From Chloroflexota bacterium (lineage in GTDB: Bacteria > Chloroflexota > UBA11872 > VXOZ01), in NCBI GenBank assembly GCA_965221905.1, contig OZ244922.1:97394-161393 (forward strand): a stretch of DNA of 64,000 nt. Direction: 5' to 3'. Shown one piece after another: positions 1,343 to 43,068 of the stretch; position 1 is the stretch's first letter; every line of letters starts with the position of its first letter. The position numbers were made by a program, and so were the translations under genes. Below the pieces are notes generated by a model. The model did not search any database. It had not been told where the DNA came from and saw nothing but the letters and a program-made list of their open reading frames with translations.

Positions 1343-1609
1343 TTGCTTGCTCTCTCAGCTTGCAATGTAATTGGCTTCGTCGGCCAACTATCCGGATGTG
1401 TCCCACACGCCCCTGGATACGTCTTCACGCGCTGCCGGCTTTCTTGCCAAAGGAAAATCCACCCTTATCCGCATACTGCCGCAGAAGGCGCGACTCTGTC
1501 AATCCAAACGAGCGCAACTCGATACCTGGCGGCCCTAAGAGATAGTGGAAATGCAGCGGCAAATTGAATTGCCGCACGGCAGCCTTGGGGAACGGTATTG
1601 AGAATGGCG

Positions 1610-4108
1610 CTAAGTAAAGAGAGCGCGTTGCCGATTGCCGGGCTTGGGGATCAGGGTCACGCCGGCTACGGTGTCTTCCTCAGCGCGCATGCGCATGACG
1701 ATAACGCCCCGGGCCGTCCGGCCGACCTTTTTTATCTCGGTCAGCGGCACGCGCGTAATCTGACCCTTGCGCGTAATCAGGCAGATTTCGTCGTCATCGG
1801 GCGTGACAATGCGACCGCCAATCACCGGCCCGCTCTTCTCATCTACCTTCAGGGCGATGATGCCTTTGCCGCCCCGGGATTGCACGCGAAACTCCTCGAT
1901 GTCCACCTGCTTACCGTACCCATGCTCGGTGATGAGGAGCGCGCGGCTCTCCGGATCGACCAGCGCCATGCCGACGACACGATCGCCATCGCGGAGCGAG
2001 ATTCCGTTCACGCCGCCAGCGGTACGCGAATGGGCCGTAATGTTCGCTTCAGGGAAGCGGATACTTTGCCCTTGCGCTGTAAAGAGGATGACTTCTTGCT
2101 TGCCGTCTGTGAGAATTGCCGTGAACAACGCATCGTCGTCAGCCACGTTCATCGCGATCACGCCGTTTGTGCGGGCGTTCGCGAAGTCGCTGAGGCGCGT
2201 GCGCTTTATTTGACCTTGCAGCGACACCATCGTAATGTAGGCGCCGTCGGCTGCTTCGAATGAAGGTACCGGCACAATGGCGGTGATGTGCTCTCCGCGC
2301 GTGATTCCTTGGAGGAGATTTACCATGTTCTGACCGCGCGAGGTGCGGCTGCCCTCGGGTATCCCATAGGCGCGCAGGGTGAAAGCGCGCCCGCGGTCGC
2401 TGACAATGAGCATCCAATCGTGGGAATCGACCAATAGGAATTCTTGCACGGCATCGGACGCGCGGGTCGAAACGCCGATGATGCCCTTGCCGCCGCGCCG
2501 CTGGGCCTGAAAGTCGCCCGCGGGCTGGCGCTTCACGTAGCCGCGCTCGGTGAGGGTGATCAGCACGTCCTCTTTGGGCACCAAGTCTTCCTGCGAGAAG
2601 CTGGAATCGGCATATTCGGAAATGACCGTGCGGCGCTTGTCGCCGAATTTGTCCTTGAGGGCGGCAAGTTCCTGCTTGATGATGATGAAGACTTCACCAA
2701 CGTCGCCGAGGATGGTCTCCAGGCGCGCAATTGTTTGCTTGACTTGCTCATACTCGTCCAGGATAGCCTGGCGCTCCATGGCGGCCAGCCGGCGCAACTC
2801 CATTGCCAATACCGCATTGGCCTGTCTTTCACTGAGGTCGAAGCCCCGCTGCAAGTTGTTGCGTGCCGTCTGGGCGTTGCGGGACTTGCGGATGGTTGCG
2901 ATGACCTCGTCCAGGTTATCCAGCGCAATGCGTAGGCCGATCAAGATGTGGGCGCGGTCGCGGGCGCGCTCAAGCTCGTATTGCGTGCGCCGCGTGACGA
3001 CATTCTGACGAAAGCGGATGTATTCGCGCAGCAGGGCCTTAAGGCTGAGCACGCGCGGTTGCTGGTCCACCAGTGCCAGCATGTTGCAGTAGAATGACGA
3101 CTGCATTGCCGTGTGCTGGTAGAGGTGGTTGAGTACCTGTTGCGGGAAGGCGTCACGACGCAATTCGATTACCATGCGCATGCCGGAGCGGTCGGACTCA
3201 TCCCGCAGTTCGCTAATGCCCTCGAGTTTCTTTTCACGCACTAACTGCGCCATGCGTTCCAGCAGGGTCGCTTTGTTGACCTGGTACGGCAGTTCTGTGA
3301 CGATGATCTGGAACCGGTTGCCGCGCATCTCCTCGATGCGCGCCTTCGCTCGCACGATGACGCGGCCGCGTCCCGTGGCGTAGGCTTCCCGTATGCCTTC
3401 GGTGCCGATAATCGTGCCTGCGGTGGGGAAGTCCGGTCCGTGGACGAACTGCATCAGGTCTTCCACGCCAACGTCGTCCTCATGCCCCACGGCTATCTTG
3501 TCCGTGAGGAAAGTGAGCGCGTCTATCACCTCGACCAAGTTATGCGGCGGGATGTTGGTAGCCATGCCCACGGCGATGCCCGTTGCGCCGTTGACGAGCA
3601 GATTCGGCACTTTGCTGGGCAAAACCGTTGGTTCTTTCAGCGTATCGTCGAAGTTGCTGCTGAAGTCTACCGTTTCTTTATCGATGTCGGCCAGCATTTC
3701 CATCGCCAGGGAATGCAGGCGCGCCTCGGTGTAGCGCATGGCGGCGGGCGGATCGCCGTCCACGGACCCGTAGTTCCCCTGGCCGTCAATCAAGGGGTAG
3801 CGCATGCTAAACGTCTGCGCCATGCGCACCATGGCGTCGTAGATGGGCTCATTGCTGTGAGGATGGAAGCGCCCCATGGTGTCACCGACGATACGCGCGC
3901 TCTTCTTGTATGCCGTGCCCGGGCGGGCATTGAGCTCTTGCATGGAGTAGAGAATGCGCCGCTGCACGGGCTTAAGGCCGTCGCGCACGTCCGGCAACGC
4001 CCGGGAGACGATGACACTCATGGCGTAGTCCAAGTACGCCGACTGCATCTGGTCTTCGATATTGACCGGACTTACAGCTTCGATGTTGGGGTCAAGGGCA
4101 TCTGCCAT
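1610..4108 (-). CDS. gyrA: DNA gyrase subunit A
   Basis: 832 aa; N-terminus [32 protein letters not shown] is canonical GyrA; catalytic Tyr region and C-terminal beta-pinwheel repeats present. Confidence 0.95.
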
Positions 4109-4202
4109 ACTCTCTCCTTGCGGTCAGGAAGGGCAATCGCGGTTCTACTTTCCTGTAGTCCTGAAACTGCTCTGACATTGCTGTGAAAGCAGGTATTTTC
4201 GG

Positions 4203-4393
4203 CTGCCTTCGTCAAAGGTCCGATGTCGCTCTGGTAGCGTAGGTTTGAAACCTGCGCCCGCTGCCTTCGTCAGAGGCCCGGTTTCGCTCCGGTAGCGTAG
4301 GTTTGAAACCTGCGCCCGCTACCTTCGTCAGAGGCCCGGTTTCGTTCCGGTAGCGTAGGTTTGAAATCTGCGCCCGCTGCCGTCTCTCCGGCG
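4203..4393. repeat. Tandem direct repeat, about 59 bp unit x 3.2 copies, between moaC and the gyrA start
   Basis: Units at 4203-4260, 4261-4319, 4320-4378 plus a partial fourth; about 90% identical; each contains short hairpins (ccggtttcgctccgg, aggtttgaaacct). Confidence 0.9.
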
Positions 4394-4974
4394 CAAGCGG
4401 GACTTCACCTGCTCTGTGCCACTCGGCTCCGTCCCAAGCGGGGGACAAGCCCCGCGCTATTCTGTCTATCTGAAATTGCACGTGGTCTGCGACCCACGAC
4501 CTTAACCTCCGCACAAGCGAGCGCGGCGATTAGGAGATCGCCGATTTCATCTTTCGTATGCGGTCTGCCAAGACCAGGGGGTGCTTCCGGTACTTCTAGG
4601 AAACCAGGGTCCTCGTCTCTTCGCAGATTGCTCCGGTCGCAGCCACTGCCGGTATGCCTGCGCTGCGTTGTCCCAAGGCTGCACTGAATAAATAAAGGCC
4701 GGAAAGACGGAGTCGGTACGCTACGTGTCGTGGTGCTTGCCAGACTAGAAGCTATCTCATAAATCGGTTCGATAGCCAATTTGTGCTTCGACAAGGGCTT
4801 CGCGCAGCACTCAGCACGAACGGATTCTTGCCTTTTCCGTTCGCCCCCGTATCGTGTCGATACGCTGTATCGAGTACGGGGCAGGCTCTGAGCCTGCCTG
4901 TCCTGAGCTTGTCGAAGGGTCGAAGGGCAGGTCTACACCCAGCGATGTATTTGTGAGGCAAGTTCTAGAAACCC

Positions 4975-28085: not shown

Positions 28086-28862
28086 TCAAAGATCAATACG
28101 TTCTAACTCCTGCTGCCGGTCGAAGATGCGCTGCACGTTGGAGCAGAGGATCTTCTCTTTCTCCGCAGCAGTGAGGTCGGCGCCCCATATCTTAGACAGT
28201 TGCGACGTGAACGACCGGCCGGAAGCGTCGCTGCCGTAGACGACGTGATCGGCGCCGACGTGCCTGACGAGGATTTCTGTGTAGCCGTTGTTCGCCTCGT
28301 TGCCGCCCACGTCCATCAGGACGTTAGGGAGACCGAGAGCGCACTTAGCGCCGACTTCGATATCACCGGCGGCATGGCCGAAGAAGAACGTAACGTCCGG
28401 GTGGCGCAGCGCCATTTCGCGCATGTCCGGGCCGCTGGTCTCGGTAGGCAAGTTGCCCGTAACCTCCGCGAACGTGTGCTGCAGCACGGGCAGGCGATAC
28501 TCGGCGCAGATCTGCATGATGCCGTCCACAATTGGGTTATTGCCCCGGACCGCTTCCCAAAGCTTGACCCCTTGGCGTCCCCGGAACCCTTTTACGCGGC
28601 GCTCCAATTCGTCGCAGGCGAACTGCCCGTGCACGGGATTGAGGTACCAGAACGGTATCACCCGCTGTGGGTGCTGCCGGGCGAGGCCCAAGGTGCGGCC
28701 GTTGCAGGCAGTCACGAATTCGCGTGACGGGAAGTTAGGCGAAGCGCTGCCTTCCAGGTTGATGCTGTTCGTGCAGAGCACCATGTCGAGGCGCTCCGCT
28801 TGCGCGAGCGCTCTCTGCATCATTTGCACGCTGCGGAAGTGTACGTGCACGTCGTAGATCAT
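28086..28862 (-). CDS. Amidohydrolase-2 family protein, paralog A
   Basis: 258 aa; MIYDVHVHFRS...; about 55% identical to the adjacent gene. Confidence 0.7.
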   Translation of the reverse strand: MIYDVHVHFRSVQMMQRALAQAERLDMVLCTNSINLEGSASPNFPSREFVTACNGRTLGLARQHPQRVIPFWYLNPVHGQFACDELERRVKGFRGRQGVKLWEAVRGNNPIVDGIMQICAEYRLPVLQHTFAEVTGNLPTETSGPDMREMALRHPDVTFFFGHAAGDIEVGAKCALGLPNVLMDVGGNEANNGYTEILVRHVGADHVVYGSDASGRSFTSQLSKIWGADLTAAEKEKILCSNVQRIFDRQQELERIDL

Positions 28863-29072: not shown

Positions 29073-29828
29073 CTACCTGGCAAAGAGTGCCGCGGCATTC
29101 CCGTAAAGAATCTTGTCGCGCTCGATTTCTGCAATGTCCGCGCCGTAAACCTTTGCCAACTGCGACGTGAACGACCTGCCCGTCGCATCGCTCCCAAAAA
29201 CAACACGCCCGGCTCCCAGGTAGCGGACGAGCATTTCAGTATAGCCGTTCGTCGCCTCGTTGCCGCCGATATCCATCAGCACGTTGTTAAGGCCGAGGGC
29301 GCACTTCACGCCGTACTCGAGGTCGCTGCCCGCGTGACCCCAAAGAAACGTGACGTCAGGATGCCGCAACGCCATCTGCCGCATCTCTTGCGGCGTGGTC
29401 TCGGTGGGGAGGGTGCCTGCCACCTCGATATTGGTGTGCTGCAGCACCGGCAGGCAATGCTGCGCGCAGAGGTCTAGCACGGGATCGAGCCGCGAATCAT
29501 CCCCCTTTACCGCCATCCAGAGCTTAACGCCCTGGGAACCCTCGTGGCGCGCGAGCCGCTGCCTCAGTTCCGCGCAAGCCGTTTCGCCGTGCGCCGGATT
29601 GAGGTACCAGAAGGGAATGACGCGCTGCGGATTCGCCTGCGCCGCCGCCTGTGTGCGGTCGTTGCAGGCTGTCACGAACTTTGCCGACGGGAAATGCGGC
29701 GAGGCGGTGCCTTCAAGATTGATCGTGTTCAGGCAGAGTACCATGTCAAGCTGCTCAGCCTGGCGCAGCGCCTGCGCAAGTTGCGCTTCGGAGCGATAGT
29801 GCACGTGTACGTCAATGACCATGGGCAA
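29073..29828 (-). CDS. Amidohydrolase-2 family protein, paralog B (tandem duplicate)
   Basis: 251 aa; MVIDVHVHYRS...; collinear similarity to 28086..28862. Confidence 0.7.
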   Translation of the reverse strand: MPMVIDVHVHYRSEAQLAQALRQAEQLDMVLCLNTINLEGTASPHFPSAKFVTACNDRTQAAAQANPQRVIPFWYLNPAHGETACAELRQRLARHEGSQGVKLWMAVKGDDSRLDPVLDLCAQHCLPVLQHTNIEVAGTLPTETTPQEMRQMALRHPDVTFLWGHAGSDLEYGVKCALGLNNVLMDIGGNEATNGYTEMLVRYLGAGRVVFGSDATGRSFTSQLAKVYGADIAEIERDKILYGNAAALFAR

Positions 29829-33184: not shown

Positions 33185-33781
33185 CTACGTGGCGGCGGTG
33201 GTGCTAATCTTCGATTCTCGCCTCCGCATCCGCTCTCGTTGGACTCGCTTGTTTGCACCGGTTGCGTTGATACGCCACCTAAGCATCGCTTCACTCGCGC
33301 CAAGGCGTTCCCGAGCTTCTTGCTCTGTGAATTTGCCTCGCGCGACAGCGAGTGCCATGTCAGAGGTGACCAGCAACTCGCCACCAAGCCAATTTGCTTC
33401 CTCTTCCCTACCATCATTCCAATTCCTGCATCCCGTCGACGGGTCAAGAGCGGGTTCAGGTTCGTGGAGTAGGAGGGCGTGGGCCAGTTCATGTGCCAAA
33501 TCACTATTCTGCCGAACCTTGGAGTGAGAATCGTTGTGGACGATTATCCTGCGATGACCGTCAAAGACGGTGAGAGCGGAGAATGCCTCCTGCTCTTCTG
33601 AAAGGAAATACTGAATTCTGGCCGAATCGGGTACGAGGCGGCTCAGCGGCTCAACAGGAATCTCTAAGTGTTGGGCAAGGCCGAGAGGGTCGAGGCCATC
33701 GAGCGGCCCAAGCCCAAGTTCAGCCCTGACTTCCAAAGCCAATTTGGTTGCTTCAGACTTGAATCCCCTTCGAAGTTTCAC
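33185..33781 (-). CDS. ImmA/IrrE-family Zn metallopeptidase (CapP-like)
   Basis: 198 aa; HEXXH motif in DLAHELAHALLLHEP; GTG start 3 nt after the HTH gene stop. Confidence 0.75.
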   Translation of the reverse strand: MKLRRGFKSEATKLALEVRAELGLGPLDGLDPLGLAQHLEIPVEPLSRLVPDSARIQYFLSEEQEAFSALTVFDGHRRIIVHNDSHSKVRQNSDLAHELAHALLLHEPEPALDPSTGCRNWNDGREEEANWLGGELLVTSDMALAVARGKFTEQEARERLGASEAMLRWRINATGANKRVQRERMRRRESKISTTAAT

Positions 33782-33784
33782 CAG

Positions 33785-34144
33785 CTACTCCTGTTTTCTC
33801 AGTCGCTGATAGGTCAGCTTTACTACCTCATCAAGTGTTGCCGCTGCTTCCGGCGTCAGGTTCTTGTCGCTTCTGAGGTAGGTCGAAATCATCGCCAGGG
33901 GCTCGGGCTCGCCTTGCTTGTTCTCAGAACGTACAAAGTCGTCTGCCTTGAGCCCAGACCAAGACACCAGCGCGGCTAGTCCATCGACATCCGGCCTCTT
34001 TCCTTGGGCCATTCTCGTCAGAGTCGAAGCGCTGACCCCCGACTGGGCGGCGACTTCCTTCCAGTTGAGGTTCCTTGACCTGCGCGTTGCGTCCAGTGCC
34101 TCGTAAAATCCCTTGCTGTCGAATTTCCCGTGCTTCTGGTCCAT
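33785..34144 (-). CDS. XRE-family helix-turn-helix transcriptional regulator (CapH-like)
   Basis: About 119 aa from MDQKHGKF; HTH LNWKEVAAQSGVSASTLTRMAQGKRPDVDGLAALVSW. Confidence 0.75.
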   Translation of the reverse strand: MDQKHGKFDSKGFYEALDATRRSRNLNWKEVAAQSGVSASTLTRMAQGKRPDVDGLAALVSWSGLKADDFVRSENKQGEPEPLAMISTYLRSDKNLTPEAAATLDEVVKLTYQRLRKQE

Positions 34145-34161
34145 CTGGGCCTCCCTATGGG

Positions 34162-34190
34162 TTGCAATTCTCAAAACGACCACCTATAAT
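34162..34190 (+). promoter_or_regulatory. Near-consensus sigma70-type promoter TTGCAA-N17-TATAAT facing the Ubl operon, with flanking inverted repeat ggttgc...gcaacc
   Basis: ttgcaa at 34162-34167, tataat at 34185-34190; inverted repeat at 34160-34166 and 34207-34213; about 55 bp upstream of the ATG at 34246. Confidence 0.5.
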
Positions 34191-34245
34191 AGAATTATTG
34201 GTTAGCAACCGAACACCGCAATAGCAATCGAAAGGATTGTACCAC

Positions 34246-34494
34246 ATGAATGGCGATACGCAAATCTACGTGAGCGGCCGAGAGCATAAAGTCTCAGGTA
34301 ATGTCGTGAGCTACGAGCAGATCGTGAAGATCTGGAACGAGCTGCACAAGACTGAGAACAAGCACATCATTGGCACGCCCGGCATCGACTACGAAGACGA
34401 CCTGAAAGGTGAGGACGGTGTCCTCCAGCAAGGCAAAGACGTTAGAGTCAAGGACGGCACGAGTTTCTCTGTCGACCCGGAACATGTCTCGTAA
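34246..34494 (+). CDS. Small beta-grasp ubiquitin-like protein (Mub/ThiS-like), first gene of the operon
   Basis: 82 aa; pattern I.VSG....VSG..VSYEQI....T.....I......YE....G.DG.L..GKDV.VKDGTSF resembles E1/E2-associated multiubiquitin-type Ubl domains; AAAGGA RBS; stop overlaps the next gene start by 11 nt. Confidence 0.5.
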   Translation: MNGDTQIYVSGREHKVSGNVVSYEQIVKIWNELHKTENKHIIGTPGIDYEDDLKGEDGVLQQGKDVRVKDGTSFSVDPEHVS

Positions 34495-35671
34495 GGACCG
34501 CCTCACTGCGTTCGGCGAGCAGGCCGGGTTTGGCGTCAAAGTCGAATCCGATTTAGTGCGGGCCGTACAGGTTCCGTGTCTCCTTTCAGACTGCTCTGTC
34601 GGCACTTGCACTATTGAGACGTCTTACAATCCCGCCAGCGGGAAACCGGACAGAAAGATCGGCGGGGACGTACATGCAGTGCGGATCACAATCAACGAAG
34701 AGTGCGACGGGCGCGTGTACCACGCAGATGGAACACCAATCGGGAACTACGTCGACGGTGACGACAAGACCTGGTCGAACATTTCAATCAAGAAAGGGTG
34801 GCAAGGAAGTCCCGAGGAAGACGCGACGGCAAGCGACTTGATCCACCGCTATGCGAAGCACATCGTAGGGGCAGTGTCGGCTGCCGGATACTCTGGGACC
34901 AATTTTCTTGCAAAGCCCGGTCCGTTCAAGATCCCCAACACTTTTGAGGCGCGGGCAGCGATAGGTCCAGTGCAAGACCGCATCCGTGATCAACGTATTG
35001 CGATCATCGGACTGGGTGGTACGGGTGCTTACGTCCTAGACCTCATGGCGAAGACGCCGGTGTCGGAAATCCATCTTCTGGATGCCGACTTTGTTGATTG
35101 GCACACCTTCATGCGGGCCCCCGGCGCACCTACTACCGAGGAGATTGAATCGCGGCGAAAAGAACGTTCGCGAAAAGTAGCTTACTACTATTCCAAGTAC
35201 GAGTCACTCCGCGAAGGCATATTCGTGCACGAAATTCGAGTGGACAGCGCCACAGTTTTCAATGAGTTTCTGTCGGACCATCCCATCGACTATGCCTTTG
35301 TGTGTATCGACCAACTGACCGAAGGTGATTCGCCGCGTCAGGATGTAGTGTACTGTGCGCTCTCTGAGGCGTGGGTTCCGTTCATAGATTCGGGCGTGAG
35401 CATTACGGTGGAGAACTCCGCCGTTAGCGGCGCGGTGACGACAAACTCCTTTGACGCGGGCTCTGTGGCGTGGAAGAAAAACATACCGAATGCTAGAGTC
35501 GAGGGCAACATGCCGGGCTATCGCAACATTCAACTGCCGGAAGTGAACGCGCTTGCGGCGGCACTCGCTGTGATGGAGTGGCGGCGGCGCACTGGGCAGT
35601 ATGTTTCGGAGTCAGAATCGTCTCTCCATAAGTTGCGATTTAAGAAGCCGGACATTTTATGTGTGAAATGA
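34484..35671 (+). CDS. Fusion of an N-terminal E2-like domain with a C-terminal E1-like ThiF/MoeB adenylyltransferase
   Basis: 395 aa; Rossmann motif RIAIIGLGGTGAYVLDLMAKT...HLLDADFVD (GxGxxG plus DxD) typical of ThiF/E1; N-terminal about 170 aa with conserved-looking HAVRITINEEC (His about 10 residues before Cys, UBC-like). Confidence 0.65.
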   Translation: MSRKDRLTAFGEQAGFGVKVESDLVRAVQVPCLLSDCSVGTCTIETSYNPASGKPDRKIGGDVHAVRITINEECDGRVYHADGTPIGNYVDGDDKTWSNISIKKGWQGSPEEDATASDLIHRYAKHIVGAVSAAGYSGTNFLAKPGPFKIPNTFEARAAIGPVQDRIRDQRIAIIGLGGTGAYVLDLMAKTPVSEIHLLDADFVDWHTFMRAPGAPTTEEIESRRKERSRKVAYYYSKYESLREGIFVHEIRVDSATVFNEFLSDHPIDYAFVCIDQLTEGDSPRQDVVYCALSEAWVPFIDSGVSITVENSAVSGAVTTNSFDAGSVAWKKNIPNARVEGNMPGYRNIQLPEVNALAAALAVMEWRRRTGQYVSESESSLHKLRFKKPDILCVK

Positions 35672-35689
35672 CCTGCGAGGGTAAATGCC

Positions 35690-36106
35690 TTGAAGCTCCA
35701 TCCCATCTTTGTGGAGATTATGCCCGATTTCGACGCAATCAAAGATGGCGAGCTTTGGATCAGCCACAAGCATCGGACAATAAATCTGCGCTGTCCATAT
35801 GGCTGTGGCGAATTGACGGTGCTGTCCCTCCACCCCAGTCGATGGCACGTTTACTTCGATGGGAAGTCGGTCTCCCTTGACGGTCCAACGGGTGGGTCCG
35901 TGTGGGCTAGATCCTGCTGTGGTAGCCACTACAAAATTCTAAACAACATTGTGATTTGGTTGGAAGGGATCGATCCAGGTCGCCATTCGGAGTATGCGGA
36001 TGGCGAGCGGACCCGCATGCTTGGCTCAACCTCGAATGGTCAGACTCTTCGTTCATGGCTCAGACGCATATGGCATGTTATGTCGTTGGGCAGTTGGCCT
36101 AAGTAG
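35690..36106 (+). CDS. Cys-rich small protein (CxxC ... CCxxH), probable Zn-binding, third operon gene (possibly DUF6527-like)
   Basis: 128-138 aa; CPYGCGE and SCCGSHY motifs; likely ATG at 35720 after GGAG; 19 nt after the E1 stop. Confidence 0.45.
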   Translation: MKLHPIFVEIMPDFDAIKDGELWISHKHRTINLRCPYGCGELTVLSLHPSRWHVYFDGKSVSLDGPTGGSVWARSCCGSHYKILNNIVIWLEGIDPGRHSEYADGERTRMLGSTSNGQTLRSWLRRIWHVMSLGSWPK

Positions 36107-36257
36107 TATTGCTCTATTCCGCTAGGTCGAGTGGGGCTATCTGATGCTCTGATCAGGCTAACCGTCCAATGGTCGCAAGACTAGCACACGTCTTATTGGG
36201 TCGCTGTAAAGGCGACGGGCCACACCGTCTCATCGAATCAAGTAAGGACTGATGACC

Positions 36258-37127
36258 TTAACCTCCCAGTTTGGATCGTATACCTTCCTCGAACTCAGTC
36301 AAAGTAACGGGAGAGCCACCCGTCAGTCCCTCGGTGGCCCTCTCAAGTGTCGTGATGTGGACACTATCCCTAACAAGCTTAAAGCGTCTGCCGTCGTCGA
36401 CTTCTTGGAAGTCTACAGTAAACCACGCTATGTCCCCGTTGGACAGGTCGCCAACCTCCTCCATATGCCCAAGGGATTCGAAGAAGTGCTTGTCAACCAC
36501 TACTGCCATCTTCTTGCCCCATCGACGGAGCGTAGGCACTTTGATCTGCAACTGGGGCATTAGACGCTTCGGGCCGCTACTCCGATAGTCAGGTCGCCGT
36601 ATCTGTCTCGGAAAGGGCGGGTGTTCTCCATCATAATCCCTGATGTACCGGAACTCTTCACTCATGCTCCTGCCGGAAAAGTAGACAGCTTGAATCTCCA
36701 AGGCGCACCAATTGAGCGCTGCCGAACAGGTCTCCTGATCTGCCAGAACCATGTCTATTCGCCCTACGTCGGTGTTTCCATCCTCTGCCCTCAGGAAGCC
36801 AATCTCGGTGGCTATGTCGGGTGCGGAAGTGCCCAAGACAGTTTCACCCACCCATTGAAAGATCGTCTTGTCCTCTTCAAATCGCCGTGGACAGAGCACC
36901 CTCAGTCCGGCCTCCGCACCCGATTCAGGTATTGCTACACCGTCGGAATCTTCGTACGATCTGAATGAACAAACACCTCCCCTCTTTGTGCATTGTCCTC
37001 CACCCATGCGAAAGGGGCATGGGTGGGAACCGGTTCCAGCGGAGTATGCGCGCCGTTCGTCTTGCGTCAAACCGACGAATGAATGTCCGTACCACTCCCC
37101 TATGCCAAAGCGTCGAGGCCGAGTCAT
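36258..37127 (-). CDS. Candidate type II restriction endonuclease with N-terminal Cys-cluster
   Basis: 289 aa; start overlaps the methyltransferase stop (ATGA); N-terminal HPCPFRMGGGQCTKRGGVCSF cluster; candidate PD-(D/E)xK-like segment IDMVLAD...ALEIQ. Confidence 0.45.
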   Translation of the reverse strand: MTRPRRFGIGEWYGHSFVGLTQDERRAYSAGTGSHPCPFRMGGGQCTKRGGVCSFRSYEDSDGVAIPESGAEAGLRVLCPRRFEEDKTIFQWVGETVLGTSAPDIATEIGFLRAEDGNTDVGRIDMVLADQETCSAALNWCALEIQAVYFSGRSMSEEFRYIRDYDGEHPPFPRQIRRPDYRSSGPKRLMPQLQIKVPTLRRWGKKMAVVVDKHFFESLGHMEEVGDLSNGDIAWFTVDFQEVDDGRRFKLVRDSVHITTLERATEGLTGGSPVTLTEFEEGIRSKLGG

Positions 37128-38080
37128 GGTGTTAGCTCGCGGGATGTGATGAGTAACTCGTACATCACCGCGTGGTGCGTATTCTTCATTGGAATCTTGG
37201 CCAGGTGGAATCCTCGCCTGAGCGCCATGTCAACTACGTCGGGACTCTCGTCGTAGGTCATCATGAAAACGCCTCGTACCCGCGACATACGCTCGAACAG
37301 GTTCTCGTGGTCGATCTCGTTGTACGTATACAGACGCCTTCCCGCCCGCTTGCCCGCGGCGGTGTAGGGAGGGTCGATGAAGAACGCGGCTGCCACGTTG
37401 TCCTTGCACAATTCTACGAGGCCCACACCATCTCCCTGGAAGAAGTCGAATCGCTCGGCATAGTTCCCTATGGCGCGAATGCGGGCTGCTAGAGTGTCGG
37501 CGTACCAGCGGGAGGAGATTCCATGGCCGTTCTCTCCCTGCTTCATCACCGAGGCGCCCTTGGCCATGATGCCACCCCGACTGACCCTATTCCGCAACAG
37601 GGTCTGAAAGGCGGCGTCCATTCCGGATGCCCCGGCATCCTCGAACACAGTGCTCACGTTCTCTGAAGTCGCTACGAAACCTTCGACGCGCCGAGCAAGT
37701 TCCTCGGCGTCATCGAGCATGCACTGCCAGAGATTGGATATGTCCGGGTCCCTCTCGCATAGCACTGCACGATCCACATAACTGTCCATGACAGCCGTTA
37801 GGGATGCGATTCCGCCACCAGCAAACGGTTCAACGAAAACTTCTGGGCGGAAGTCGAGCCCTGCCAGAAACCTCCGTATTTCGGGCACAAGCCATGTCTT
37901 GCCGCCTGGATAGCGCAAAGGGCTTCGCTGCGGAACCGACGAGACGTTTACGGCCGTGTCGGATAGCACCGGAATCGCTTGCGCGACTTTCAGTTCGGCG
38001 GCGCCTTTGGCCCGCTCCTCCGTAAGAGAGGTCGCGTCGCTTTGGTTGAATGTGAATAAGTCTGTTCGAGGTTCCGTCAT
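37124..38080 (-). CDS. Dam-family (D12 class) N6-adenine DNA methyltransferase
   Basis: 318 aa; SAM motif LRYPGGKTWL and catalytic FFIDPPY. Confidence 0.8.
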   Translation of the reverse strand: MTEPRTDLFTFNQSDATSLTEERAKGAAELKVAQAIPVLSDTAVNVSSVPQRSPLRYPGGKTWLVPEIRRFLAGLDFRPEVFVEPFAGGGIASLTAVMDSYVDRAVLCERDPDISNLWQCMLDDAEELARRVEGFVATSENVSTVFEDAGASGMDAAFQTLLRNRVSRGGIMAKGASVMKQGENGHGISSRWYADTLAARIRAIGNYAERFDFFQGDGVGLVELCKDNVAAAFFIDPPYTAAGKRAGRRLYTYNEIDHENLFERMSRVRGVFMMTYDESPDVVDMALRRGFHLAKIPMKNTHHAVMYELLITSRELTP

Positions 38081-40096: not shown

Positions 40097-41374
40097 TCAC
40101 TTGAATCGGCTAAGACCTGACTGGTCGACCAAAAGGCCAAAGAGCTTTCGTTCTCCACTGCTACCAGGGACGTATTCTTCCGAAGTGAATTTGCCGTCTT
40201 CTAGCTCAATCTTCTCAAATACGTCGCAAAACACCTCACGCAACACAATCTCTCCCCTTCTTTCCTGAGAATTGTACGCTATCCTCATAAAGCGCATTAG
40301 TGCTCCAAATCCCGTCGTGCGATTGAGAATGTTACCTCTAAATACATGGTCCCAGGAATTGGGCCACTTTGCTTGAACTGCCAAGAAATAGTTCCAAAGT
40401 ATAAGTGCTATATTGACATCCACTTCATTTATGAACCAATTTCTGAAAATCTGCCAATCAGTGTCCTTGCCGGAAATCCGGCTTAACTTTCTTCCGCGTC
40501 GCAGAGTATCACGATCGCCCATCGGATCTCTCGAAATGTACCTCAGCAAACGATCCACAAAAGTAGCCTGAGTTATAGTCTCTTGATCCTTTCCACTGCC
40601 CGTGCCCAGCATCTTCACTTTGGAGAAAAACGGACTTCCTCGCCTGTAGTTCAAGAATCGCACTATGTCGTGAGCCGTTCGCTGAGGACTACGGGTCTTA
40701 GTGAATTCGTACAAGTCATATGCCAAGGACTTGTTGACCTTGGTCTGTTTCAGATTGATCGTAGCAAACACCATAGCTTGATCCTGCAAATCCATATCAA
40801 TAAACACCGACACATTCACATCAAACTGGGGGCCTTCATACCCCTTCAGACCAGCAATGCGATGCTGTCCATCGATAATCTTTGCAGCCTTGCAATGACG
40901 GTCAATCGATATCGTAGAAGTCTCCTCATCATAGGAGGCTTGGTTGGACGACACTGCGATCAAGACCGAAGTGGGGAACGCGGCATCCTGGGTTCCAACA
41001 TATTGTCGGATCTCCTTAACTCTTCTTTGGCTCAGCTCTCTTTGTATTCCCAAGAATTCTTCAAAGTCTTGTTCATCAGCATTGAGGAATGCCTTGTCCA
41101 TTTCTTCGATCACTGAGTCGTCAACTTGGGAGGAGTCAATACTCGGCAGCAGGGGGACTTCTCCTTGGGGAGAAGCGGAATCTCCGATATCGCCTGCAAT
41201 CCTACGAATGTCTGCCCAAGCAATGTCTACAAGATCAGATGCACACATGGTGCCAATGTAGAAAGTCCCTATCGGTTGGGTTACTGGCAAACACGGGAAC
41301 TTGACTTTCGAATGGTCCTCAGTCATTGTAGGGCCTCTAGAATTCTCAACTAGTGATTTTAGGTCTGAGAGCAT
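40097..41374 (-). CDS. DGQHR-domain protein (DndB-like, ParB/sulfiredoxin-type fold)
   Basis: 425 aa; signature IIDGQHRIAG; GC about 47%. Confidence 0.8.
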   Translation of the reverse strand: MLSDLKSLVENSRGPTMTEDHSKVKFPCLPVTQPIGTFYIGTMCASDLVDIAWADIRRIAGDIGDSASPQGEVPLLPSIDSSQVDDSVIEEMDKAFLNADEQDFEEFLGIQRELSQRRVKEIRQYVGTQDAAFPTSVLIAVSSNQASYDEETSTISIDRHCKAAKIIDGQHRIAGLKGYEGPQFDVNVSVFIDMDLQDQAMVFATINLKQTKVNKSLAYDLYEFTKTRSPQRTAHDIVRFLNYRRGSPFFSKVKMLGTGSGKDQETITQATFVDRLLRYISRDPMGDRDTLRRGRKLSRISGKDTDWQIFRNWFINEVDVNIALILWNYFLAVQAKWPNSWDHVFRGNILNRTTGFGALMRFMRIAYNSQERRGEIVLREVFCDVFEKIELEDGKFTSEEYVPGSSGERKLFGLLVDQSGLSRFK

Positions 41375-41380
41375 GTCTGG

Positions 41381-41941
41381 CTATGTAGGGTCGTCTTCCA
41401 GTGACCGCTGCTCGCGATTGAACTCCTCTTCGAGCTTTCCTTGTCGGTTAGACCGTTCTTCCGCAACATTGAGTTCGTTGTATGCATTCTCGTGAACGTC
41501 CACGAAGAATGTCGCCGTCAGCGCGACAAGATAGATTGTGATGCTTAAAGTACGAAGAAAGGGAACGTTAATGTGTAAGTCACCTATTCTCAATGAATCT
41601 ACCACTGTCAGCCCGCTAAAAATTCCTGCAGCCACTATCAAACAGATTAGTATCAGCCACAGGTATAGTATCTTCTCTTGCCCCGATTCCCTTTTAAACA
41701 ATGGATACAGGATTGGCGATAGCGCCGCAGCAGCGTAGATAGCAAATTGGCCATTGTCGAGAAAGGTACCAAAAGCGATTGGCTGGCTGATCAAGAGTAG
41801 CAGCAAGACACTAAGCCAGACAGGCATTAGAGCTCCCATGGCGTAAAAGCCAATCGATAGCAGGGCATGCAGATAGTGCTCTTTCCGAGCCTGAGTGAGG
41901 ATGATCTTGAGCATCTTCAGGCTTTCTCCTGTGTAGGCCAT
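41381..41941 (-). CDS. Polytopic small membrane protein, hypothetical
   Basis: 186 aa; 4-5 TM helices; overlaps the upstream methyltransferase by 25 nt; low GC. Confidence 0.5.
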   Translation of the reverse strand: MAYTGESLKMLKIILTQARKEHYLHALLSIGFYAMGALMPVWLSVLLLLLISQPIAFGTFLDNGQFAIYAAAALSPILYPLFKRESGQEKILYLWLILICLIVAAGIFSGLTVVDSLRIGDLHINVPFLRTLSITIYLVALTATFFVDVHENAYNELNVAEERSNRQGKLEEEFNREQRSLEDDPT

Positions 41942-43068
41942 TTGAGAATGTATAGGTACTCATGGGCCAATAGGAATCCATCGGAGGACCAAAAATAGAA
42001 CTCGCTTGATCGATCACGGTGTTGAGTCTTGACTACTATGTCTTCAAGTTGAAATCCGGCCTTTGTGAAGGCGTCAAGGGTCCTAGCGCCTAGTGGAATG
42101 ATCTGCCCATTTCGCCTCACGTCACCGATCAATACTGCGCAAACGTTATTGGAGGCCAAGTAAGGAGTAGCGCCTTCAGCAAAGGTGGTGATACGTTCAA
42201 GGAAATCCCCAGGTTCTTTAATCTGCGACAAGTCTTCAGGAAGCCCGTTGGTGTAGGTCAATGCATCAAGATATGGAGGATGTACGCACAGCAAGTTGAC
42301 AGTGCCGGGTCGAATGTCATTGTAAGTAGCGCTGTCTTTTGCAAAGGTGGAATCTCCAAAAATGAGCTGAGGCCTATAGTGTGATTCAATCCTTGCACGG
42401 CTGTCCTGCTTAGATAATAATTCCATGCGCTCCAAGCGGGCGGAGGCGGTTTGGTGAGCTAGCTTGCTAACGTCGATGCCAACGCTGTGTCTGTTCAAGA
42501 GCCATGCCTCGATAAGAGTCGTTCCACCACCCATGAAGGCGTCCAAGACTAATTCTCCAGGCTTCGTGTACTTCAGTATGATGTTCCTTACCAATTGTGG
42601 TGGCCAGTTGCCTCGGTAGTCTCCAATGTGCACAGCCCAGCTTCCACGATTAGGAAAATCCCATAAAGTGGTTGTCTCTAACTTGAAATCAGGAGGTTCC
42701 CAAGTTCTGACGGACAAAATGGGCGGAGGGGCATACTTGTTGTCTCCTCGCTCTACTGAGGACCTGATTGCACGATCGATGACAGTCCATGAAAACAACA
42801 ACTGGCCATTCCCGGATTGAAACAGTTGCATGATCTTCTTTAGCGAAAGGCCATGGCGACGGAAATCAATAAAGAGCCCAACCCAGGTTGTCCACTCTTC
42901 GATATGGCTCTTTTTCATGTGGGGAACAATAGATCTCTTGAGGTGCTCTCCACAGAAACAGACAACGACTCGTTTACTTCCTACTTTTATAACACGGACC
43001 GAGTCAAGGAGTTTTGGACGGAGGCTGTTAGGGTCGAAGGAACAATCGGTATGATCCGGCTTAACCAT
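41917..43068 (-). CDS. DNA methyltransferase (N6-adenine/N4-cytosine, PF01555-like) with N-terminal Cys/His zinc-finger-like segment
   Basis: 383 aa; SAM-binding LVLDAFMGGGTT then catalytic LLCVHPPY; N-terminus C..C.C....H.....H. Confidence 0.75.
   Translation of the reverse strand: MVKPDHTDCSFDPNSLRPKLLDSVRVIKVGSKRVVVCFCGEHLKRSIVPHMKKSHIEEWTTWVGLFIDFRRHGLSLKKIMQLFQSGNGQLLFSWTVIDRAIRSSVERGDNKYAPPPILSVRTWEPPDFKLETTTLWDFPNRGSWAVHIGDYRGNWPPQLVRNIILKYTKPGELVLDAFMGGGTTLIEAWLLNRHSVGIDVSKLAHQTASARLERMELLSKQDSRARIESHYRPQLIFGDSTFAKDSATYNDIRPGTVNLLCVHPPYLDALTYTNGLPEDLSQIKEPGDFLERITTFAEGATPYLASNNVCAVLIGDVRRNGQIIPLGARTLDAFTKAGFQLEDIVVKTQHRDRSSEFYFWSSDGFLLAHEYLYILKWPTQEKA

Follow-up and report, generated by a model that had tools for sequence, protein, structure and literature searches.

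A widespread module of a DGQHR-domain protein and a small membrane protein linked to DNA methyltransferases, as found in a Chloroflexota genome

Introduction

The DGQHR domain is recognised by three hallmarks, namely the DGQHR pentapeptide, a QR pair and the motif FxxxN (PMC4619093). Among the closest described systems is DndI, which joins a ParB-like NTPase domain of the DUF262 (DGQQR) type to an HNH nickase. DndI senses DNA phosphorothioate (PT) modification and hydrolyses ATP; its ATPase is stimulated by PT-modified self DNA, which releases the protein, and unmodified DNA alone is cut (PMC11662687). DndB-like proteins bind ATP and GTP, and DndB itself is treated in reviews as a ParB-superfamily protein of unclear role. 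Herein, we analysed a stretch of 64,000 nucleotides from a Chloroflexota bacterium (GenBank assembly GCA_965221905.1, contig OZ244922.1, positions 97,394 to 161,393 of the forward strand; hereafter the window), in which a protein carrying the sequence IIDGQHRIAG is encoded together with a small membrane protein and a DNA amino-methyltransferase (MTase). This cassette is one copy of a widespread, uncharacterised module that is nearly always found with DNA methylases or GATC-type restriction systems, and the module is probably a new methylation-linked defence device.

Results

The membrane protein and the DGQHR protein form a conserved pair linked to methyltransferases

The cassette was compared across 80 loci with DGQHR orthologs (35-63% identity, one genome per species) by clustering of the neighbouring open reading frames (ORFs) and a hydropathy scan. 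The loci come from more than 10 phyla, including Chloroflexota, Acidobacteriota, Planctomycetota, Pseudomonadota, Bacteroidota, Bacillota, Elusimicrobiota and the candidate phyla radiation (CPR). A same-strand ORF of at least 100 aa ends at the start of the DGQHR gene in 77 of the 80 loci, and nearly all of these ORFs have 2-4 transmembrane (TM) segments. Two of the three exceptions are truncated by a contig end; the third (L005) has a split DGQHR gene, with the upstream ORF at a greater distance. In 68/80 loci an MTase gene was found no farther than 2.6 kb from the DGQHR gene, usually immediately upstream and co-oriented, with a spacer of less than 100 nt. The MTase partners were of the D12 class (45 loci), the N6_N4 class (9 loci), the Zn-finger type seen in the window (6 loci), a second D12-like group (4 loci) and the MT-A70 class (4 loci). 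The pairing of the membrane protein with the DGQHR protein is near-obligate and the linkage to MTases is strong; the conserved unit is the pair, and the Zn-finger MTase is one of at least five interchangeable families. DGQHR proteins that are 82% identical (L069/L074) or 67-68% identical (L001/L003/L004) pair with different MTase families, which is expected if the mark matters and not the enzyme, and fits a constant mark supplied by interchangeable enzymes. The initial annotation of this DNA had proposed an uncharacterised modification-linked module with a DGQHR protein and an MTase in place of Dnd/Ssp enzymes. Conserved synteny strongly supports that proposal, and the possibility raised with it, that homologs of the three genes are never co-located, is contradicted by these counts.

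The same arrangement recurs on different kinds of DNA. The contigs of two further homologs of the window MTase carry the same three-gene cassette among metabolic genes, with nothing else in the islet. Twenty close homologs of the small membrane protein lie on contigs equal in length to those of DGQHR and MTase matches, and wherever such contigs were read, all three cassette genes were adjacent. The orthologs in IMG/VR lie on prophage-like contigs, and in 10/10 of these the DGQHR gene has a methylase of the D12 or MT-A70 class no more than ~3.5 kb away; plasmids (pTR3_1 of Acinetobacter, pRiA4 and a replicon of Roseateles) carry the cassette as well. The three genes form a single horizontally mobile operon. 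The DGQHR subfamily comprises 282 clusters (50% identity, E<=1e-30) among 1.84 billion representatives, and the best relatives are Dehalococcoidia metagenome-assembled genomes.

Some loci depart from the common layout. In Paenibacillus sp. (L031, 7463-13386), a TM-DGQHR pair with no nearby methylase is followed by a 758-aa DUF4145 protein and a 460-aa protein; DUF4145 is a HEPN-type domain that Makarova et al. describe as fused to DndF. In L044, a pair without an MTase lies near a TIR gene. In some loci the module occurs in duplicate or is fused to further domains: L019 carries a tandem of two DGQHR genes, and in L014 (1502-3931, minus strand) and L030 (4180-6540, plus strand) proteins of ~790-810 aa with a DndB/DGQHR domain in mid-protein (~residues 235-420) adjoin an ordinary TM-DGQHR pair.

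The pair is associated with GATC-type restriction-modification systems

The commonest MTase partner is DpnM/Dam-like; for the D12 partners examined, taken from three phyla, DpnM was in every case the best match (E 1e-43 to 1e-56) and E. coli Dam the next. Nine membrane-protein/DGQHR pairs are embedded in complete DpnII (GATC) restriction-modification (R-M) cassettes, with the gene order dpnM-dpnB-TM-DGQHR-dpnA in Bacteroidota and dpnM-dpnA-dpnB-TM-DGQHR in two alphaproteobacterial genomes. A BglII/BstYI-type R-M system adjoins the pair in L006, pTR3_1 and pRiA4, and in pTR3_1 a small helix-turn-helix (HTH) protein of controller type lies next to the BglII-type restriction endonuclease (REase). 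Characterised BglII/BstYI-family endonucleases cut sites with a GATC core, and all neighbouring REases identified by Pfam share this core. Matches to 'RE_BanI' among the neighbours were rejected as weak secondary matches of DpnII proteins.

A link between the window MTase and such cassettes was found in Fusobacterium, in which a 244-aa protein is 37% identical to the core of the window MTase and has the same HPPY and HEYL motifs. Its gene is the last of a cassette in the order DpnM-like MTase, DpnII REase, Mrr-like protein and 244-aa HPPY MTase, and it occupies the second-methylase slot. This four-gene GATC-type cassette (L088; Fusobacterium vincentii NZ_CP084075.1, locus 1363-4729) is odd in having an Mrr_cat protein inside it; Mrr-type nucleases are normally methylation-dependent. 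The accession is labelled a plasmid though it is 2.1 Mb long.

The window cassette resembles DpnII-type cassettes in its commonest class of partner, in the embedded pairs and in the core homolog of its MTase found in one of them. It differs from them in that it has no DpnII or other recognisable REase and in that its MTase is of a different family. Neither partner protein matches an REase family in Pfam, NCBIfam or PADLOC, in contrast to a classical type II R-M system. These contexts suggest that the window MTase may act at a GATC-type site. The frequency of GATC in the window was at expectation (observed/expected 1.0) and is uninformative.

Organisation of the cassette and features of its three proteins

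The initial annotation had listed three same-strand ORFs for a DGQHR protein, a small membrane protein and a Zn-finger MTase. All three were confirmed as tightly packed minus-strand genes (Table 1), and the starts of two of them were revised on the basis of homolog alignments, database gene calls and Shine-Dalgarno-like sequences. The longest ORF of the membrane protein (41381-41941, 186 aa) likely starts at 41914 (M10), and that of the DGQHR protein (40097-41374, 425 aa) at 41326. Shine-Dalgarno-like sequences precede both corrected starts, with AGGAG upstream of the M10 start, and AAGGAG lies 8 nt upstream of the ATG of the MTase gene. With the shorter starts, the genes are therefore separated by spacers of 2 nt (MTase/membrane protein) and 54 nt (membrane protein/DGQHR protein), and the overlap formerly ascribed to the DGQHR gene and its neighbour is not upheld.

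Table 1. Coordinates of the cassette genes, their motifs and other genes of the window.
Feature	Position	Strand	Basis or remark
DNA amino-methyltransferase, 383 aa	41917..43068	-	PF01555, PADLOC MTase_II, >100 homologs
MTase, putative zinc finger C-x-C-x10-H-x4-H (CFCGEHLKRSIVPHMKKSH)	42904..42960	-	C37, C39, H50, H55 invariant in 24 homologs
MTase, motif I (S-adenosylmethionine binding) DAFMGGGTT	42517..42543	-	D176, F178, G180-T184 invariant (24 homologs); family form D-x-F-x-GGGTT
MTase, motif IV H-P-P-Y	42271..42282	-	H263, P264, P265, Y266 invariant in 24 homologs; first residue unusual
Small polytopic membrane protein, 177 aa	41381..41914	-	Hydropathy, model, homolog alignment
DGQHR-domain (putative ParB/Srx-fold) protein, 409 aa	40097..41326	-	TIGR03187, PF14072
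DGQHR protein, GIQR ('QR pair' hallmark), residues 93-96	41039..41050	-	G93, I94, R96 invariant (54 homologs)
DGQHR protein, DGQHR signature, residues 152-156	40859..40873	-	Invariant in 54 homologs; translation checked
DGQHR protein, FATIN (FxxxN hallmark), residues 187-191	40754..40768	-	F187, N191 invariant (54 homologs)
DGQHR protein, C-terminal PGSSGE motif	40151..40168	-	G388, G391, E392 invariant; P387 nearly so
IrrE/ImmA-type M78 peptidase	33185-33781	-	
XRE HTH	33785-34183	-	
ThiF/E1-like protein	34409-35671	+	
DUF6527 protein	35690-36106	+	
NotI-family endonuclease	36258-37127	-	Overlaps D12-class MTase
D12-class MTase	37124-38080	-	Best PADLOC match PD-Lambda-5_B

The DGQHR protein passed the cut-offs of the DGQHR-domain model TIGR03187 (184.3 bits vs 58.85) and the Pfam DndB model PF14072 (47.5 bits vs 29.1), and all three hallmarks of the domain are present. 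Its DGQHR signature is equivalent to the phosphate-binding motif known as Box II in ParB and GCHR in sulfiredoxin. The protein comprises a putative ParB-like NTPase-type domain at the N-terminus, a variable acidic insert (~residues 40-95), which is missing from many homologs, and a conserved C-terminal helical domain. In the AlphaFold2 (AF2) model (pLDDT 72.6), the N-terminal domain is of beta/alpha type, the acidic insert is disordered, and the C-terminal domain is all-helical and modelled with confidence, pLDDT exceeding 80 over the C-terminal 160 residues. Foldseek with this model returned just weak ParB/Noc/PadC/sulfiredoxin matches and no match for the C-terminal domain; a profile search of the PDB with the family found nothing relevant, that is, no solved-structure relative by sequence. 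A further stretch, R-S-P-Q-R-T-x-H at residues 212-219 (40670-40693), is nearly invariant in the family. Its R212...H219 spacing (R-x6-H) fits the R-x4-6-H pattern of HEPN RNases, and it is a candidate HEPN-like motif; DndB is said by Makarova et al. to carry a HEPN domain.

The membrane protein has 3 strong hydrophobic segments by the hydropathy scan, four helices in a low-confidence model and a charged C-terminal tail. The AF2 model is poor (pLDDT 52), which is low for a fold search, and no family in Pfam, NCBIfam or PADLOC was matched. The protein is homologous to the ORFs that immediately precede the DGQHR gene in 77/80 loci. The two main clusters of its homologs are homologous to each other (hhalign probability 93%) and have in common a TM1 proline, the motif G-E/Q-x3-Y and L-x3-F at the C-terminus. 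Membership of the AgrB family (PF04647) was considered for the window protein and rejected, with no AgrB match even at E<=10.

The MTase passed PF01555 (68.8 bits vs 26.7), and the PADLOC model MTase_II (PDLC03376) matched residues 121-376, the whole catalytic core, with an E-value of 2.8e-50; its more than 100 homologs are 47-87% identical. An N-terminal CCHH finger and helical domain (~residues 1-120) precede a non-permuted core of N6_N4 type, in which motif I comes before motif IV, an order permuted relative to classical beta-class enzymes. The finger, as first annotated, is real, and its coordinates and those of motifs I and IV were checked by translation. Solved relatives (CcrM, DpnA, N4-cytosine MTases and M.MboIIA) match around motif I only.

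Comparison with Dnd, Ssp, Dpd and BREX systems

A PADLOC scan of 54 other ORFs of the window detected no core Dnd, Ssp or Dpd protein and neither PglZ nor BrxC, and no PT genes lie near the cassette in the window. Weak PbeA and DpdF matches, for which the scan does not state the ORF, likely come from UvrB, the sole superfamily 2 (SF2) helicase among the window proteins checked. The core of the MTase drew a weak match to a PglX model (E 4e-7). The DGQHR protein scored far under the cut-offs of the DndB equivalog TIGR03233 (18.4 bits vs 328) and of DpdB (NF041060; 64.4 bits vs 300), with no DpdA or DpdC in the window, and was closest to the named subfamily TIGR04172 (174.6 bits vs 450). Across the 80 loci, the gene clusters that recur as neighbours include no core gene of Dnd, Ssp, Dpd or BREX. 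The initial annotation is borne out in that the window holds no Dnd/Ssp sulfur-transfer genes; its alternative of a BREX/Dpd-like fragment does not agree with the missing PglZ/BrxC and DpdA/C and with these scores.

With DndB, the window protein shares the domain superfamily, the DGQHR/QR/FxxxN motifs, the match to the Pfam DndB model and an operon with a DNA-modifying enzyme. It differs in that its partner is a methyltransferase rather than DndCDE and in having an obligate small membrane-protein gene beside it, which dndB of E. coli 55989 lacks.

TIGR04172 proteins are encoded next to Pbe/CxC-DndE genes or in the interval from dptFGH to dndBCDE, and in the two examples examined they are preceded by a small polytopic membrane protein and tied to a DNA-modification system, as in the window. 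On a Ruegeria plasmid, Pbe/CxC-DndE genes are followed by the gene for a 180-aa polytopic protein, which abuts that of 'DGQHR protein 1'. In E. coli 55989 and ~110 other E. coli genomes, dptFGH is followed by a small membrane protein, a DGQHR gene and then dndEDCB on the opposite strand. The interval from dptH to dndE in this strain (L102; NC_011748.1, 4957121-4958800) holds a 172-aa membrane protein, assigned to the AgrB family by PGAP, and then the DGQHR gene, which is annotated as two ORFs (a 101-aa 'DndB' and 268 aa) and may be frameshifted. The match of this membrane partner to Pfam AgrB is borderline (24 bits vs 23). The sequence of the E. coli pair is present at >=99% identity in 125/5,426 complete E. 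coli genomes. Nevertheless, TIGR04172 proteins are only ~23-28% identical to the window protein, are themselves uncharacterised and belong with phosphorothioation, and their membrane partners have no detectable homology to that of the window. Given that hhalign detected no homology between the window membrane-protein family and the E. coli and Ruegeria partners, the parallel to the PT-type pairs is architectural only.

The E. coli pair appears to sit in the slot where Salmonella carries dndI, as inferred from the text of PMC11662687. SspE and DndI resemble the window protein, a putative ParB-fold NTPase, as ParB-fold NTPases with a DGQ(H/Q)R motif that are coupled to a modification module, apparently in the same dpt-dnd slot. 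Unlike them, the window protein has no HNH or DUF1524 match in Pfam; its C-terminal helical domain or the separate membrane protein would serve as effector, with methylation as the mark.

Genomic setting and other features of the window

The cassette has a GC content of 0.477, the lowest of any 3-kb stretch in the 64 kb and ~3.8 standard deviations (sd) under the mean (mean 0.578, sd 0.026). The low GC reported in the initial annotation is therefore correct for the cassette, while the genome value of ~62% given with it is too high against the 0.578 of the window. The GC content at third codon positions (GC3) is ~0.52, as compared with 0.72 in the neighbouring gene for a major facilitator superfamily (MFS) transporter. 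Low GC is uniform over the whole cassette, which sits between housekeeping genes; its neighbours are the MFS transporter, RidA, PhyH, MerR and an ACC-deaminase-like gene, and GyrA and UvrB are encoded elsewhere in the window. Given the low GC and the ordinary flanking genes, the cassette is a compact foreign insert in the chromosome. In a search for an insertion signature, the window proved free of tRNA genes, and no direct or inverted repeats flanking the cassette were convincing; a promoter and terminator scan gave background level only.

A second, milder low-GC island (0.53-0.56) lies at 33185-38080, separated from the cassette by the MFS transporter gene, and looks like a small defence island (Table 1). 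Its ThiF and DUF6527 pair is echoed in Ralstonia solanacearum (CP059377.1; L100, 87-1918), where a multiubiquitin-domain protein, a ThiF-family protein and a small hypothetical protein are encoded a few kb from a solitary 'DndB'-annotated gene. At 28086-28862 and 29073-29828 (minus strand), tandem paralogous genes for ~250-aa proteins share long identical-looking stretches (e.g. RVIPFWYLNP and LPVLQHT), as if a metabolic gene had recently been duplicated.

Discussion

A full-text literature search found no description of the cassette. One paper mentions a DGQHR gene and a DpnIIA methylase together, incidentally, in a list of accessory genes for a Mycobacterium abscessus lineage. The membrane protein has no model in PADLOC-DB v2, where the DGQHR protein draws only weak DpdB and DndB matches.

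The relatives of the DGQHR protein are NTP-dependent readers or regulators of DNA modification. Our favoured reading, to which we give a little less than even weight, is that the cassette would be a methylation-based analogue of SspE/DndI-type sensing, in which the MTase marks self and the DGQHR NTPase and its membrane partner act on unmarked DNA. The MTase would mark host DNA, probably by exocyclic-amino methylation at a GATC-type site. As a putative ParB/sulfiredoxin-fold protein that would bind NTP and DNA, the DGQHR protein could survey DNA and tell marked from unmarked molecules, on the model of the ParB-like domains with which SspE and DndI read phosphorothioate. Together with its obligate membrane partner, it would then act against unmarked incoming DNA, either by nicking at the membrane, where DNA enters, or by switching on the membrane protein as an abortive-infection (Abi) effector. 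The operon would work like an R-M system with an unconventional second half.

Several observations weigh against the sensing reading. DndB represses the dnd operon and limits modification; its demonstrated role is that of a transcriptional repressor and not of a restriction factor (PMC4507180). No nuclease domain is recognisable in either of the two non-MTase proteins by Pfam, and the fold search gave weak ParB/Noc/Srx matches. The pair is also present within systems that already hold an REase (DpnII, BglII) and can therefore not be taken simply for 'the' restriction enzyme. It occurs without any nearby MTase, despite full flanks, in L031, in L044 and on a B. thuringiensis plasmid, so that, even unlinked from a methylase, the pair may not be lethal. 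In addition, the window MTase belongs to another family than DpnM and has an atypical HPPY motif, and the anti-phage activity of the cassette is a proposal from gene context.

The strongest competitor, which we nevertheless regard as rather unlikely, is that the pair is a control module and not an effector. The DGQHR protein would be a DndB-like, NTP-modulated repressor tuning the adjacent MTase or R-M operon, and the membrane protein would couple it to a membrane or envelope signal. The repressor function of DndB, also a DGQHR protein, speaks for this view, as do the pairs within complete DpnII and BglII systems, where a nuclease is already present, the pairs with no linked MTase and the failure to detect a nuclease domain. 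However, R-M controllers are normally small HTH proteins, and one already lies beside the BglII-type REase in pTR3_1. The ~400-aa DGQHR protein keeps its invariant NTPase-type motifs and conserved C-terminal domain across phyla while the MTase and the promoter are swapped freely, which is hard to square with binding to a sequence-specific operator. Moreover, a regulator leaves the obligate membrane partner unexplained, and the score against the DndB equivalog is far under its cut-off.

The sensing reading could also take a nuclease-free form, methylation-gated abortive infection, which we consider improbable in this specific version. An NTP-driven DGQHR clamp would dwell on unmethylated DNA, the cytosolic tail of the partner would open or assemble the 4-helix membrane protein, and the membrane potential would collapse. 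Such a membrane output would explain why the pair is added to systems with an REase, as a second, suicidal layer. It recalls RexAB and other Abi pairs of a sensor and a small membrane effector, which likewise place a cytosolic DNA-associated sensor beside a ~150-200-aa membrane protein with 4 TM helices; there is no sequence or fold relationship to them, and the likeness is an analogy for one possible output only.

A comparably small chance is given to an independent pair of Abi or toxin-antitoxin (TA) type that hitch-hikes with methylases, in which a ParB-fold NTPase or nucleotide-depleting enzyme and a membrane effector would respond to a trigger unrelated to methylation and would be next to MTases only because genes cluster in defence islands. 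Some pairs that lack an MTase lie near other defence genes, such as TIR (L044), DUF4145 (L031), Pbe/CxC-DndE (Ruegeria) and dptFGH (E. coli), and the Aravind group proposes ParB-family proteins of conflict systems as nucleotide-degrading co-effectors. On the other hand, loose clustering would not give an MTase linkage of such tightness and order, the minimal three-gene islets hold nothing else, and all Pfam-identified REases in the neighbourhood share the GATC core.

It is very improbable that the cassette is the remnant of a Dnd, Ssp, Dpd or BREX cluster with its other genes lost or elsewhere: the nearest named families are indeed PT- and Dpd-associated (TIGR04172, 175 bits; DpdB, 64 bits), yet all the family scores are far under their cut-offs, no core protein of these systems is encoded in the 64 kb or by the recurrent neighbours of the 80 loci, and the same compact three-gene layout recurs in unrelated genomes.

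Should the module prove to be a defence system, it would be a widespread addition to modification-based immunity, with 282 sequence clusters in more than 10 phyla, on plasmids, on prophage-like contigs and in chromosomal islets. As the cassette is just 3 kb in length, the proposal is easily tested. If the sensing reading is true, the SspE/DndI principle, by which a ParB-fold NTPase reads a self-mark, would extend from phosphorothioate to ordinary methylation, and a new obligate membrane component would be added to a DNA-modification system. It would also give a function to the uncharacterised 'DGQHR protein 1' of E. coli dpt-dnd clusters and to the many DpnM/Dam-like methylases that count as 'orphans' although these two genes follow them.

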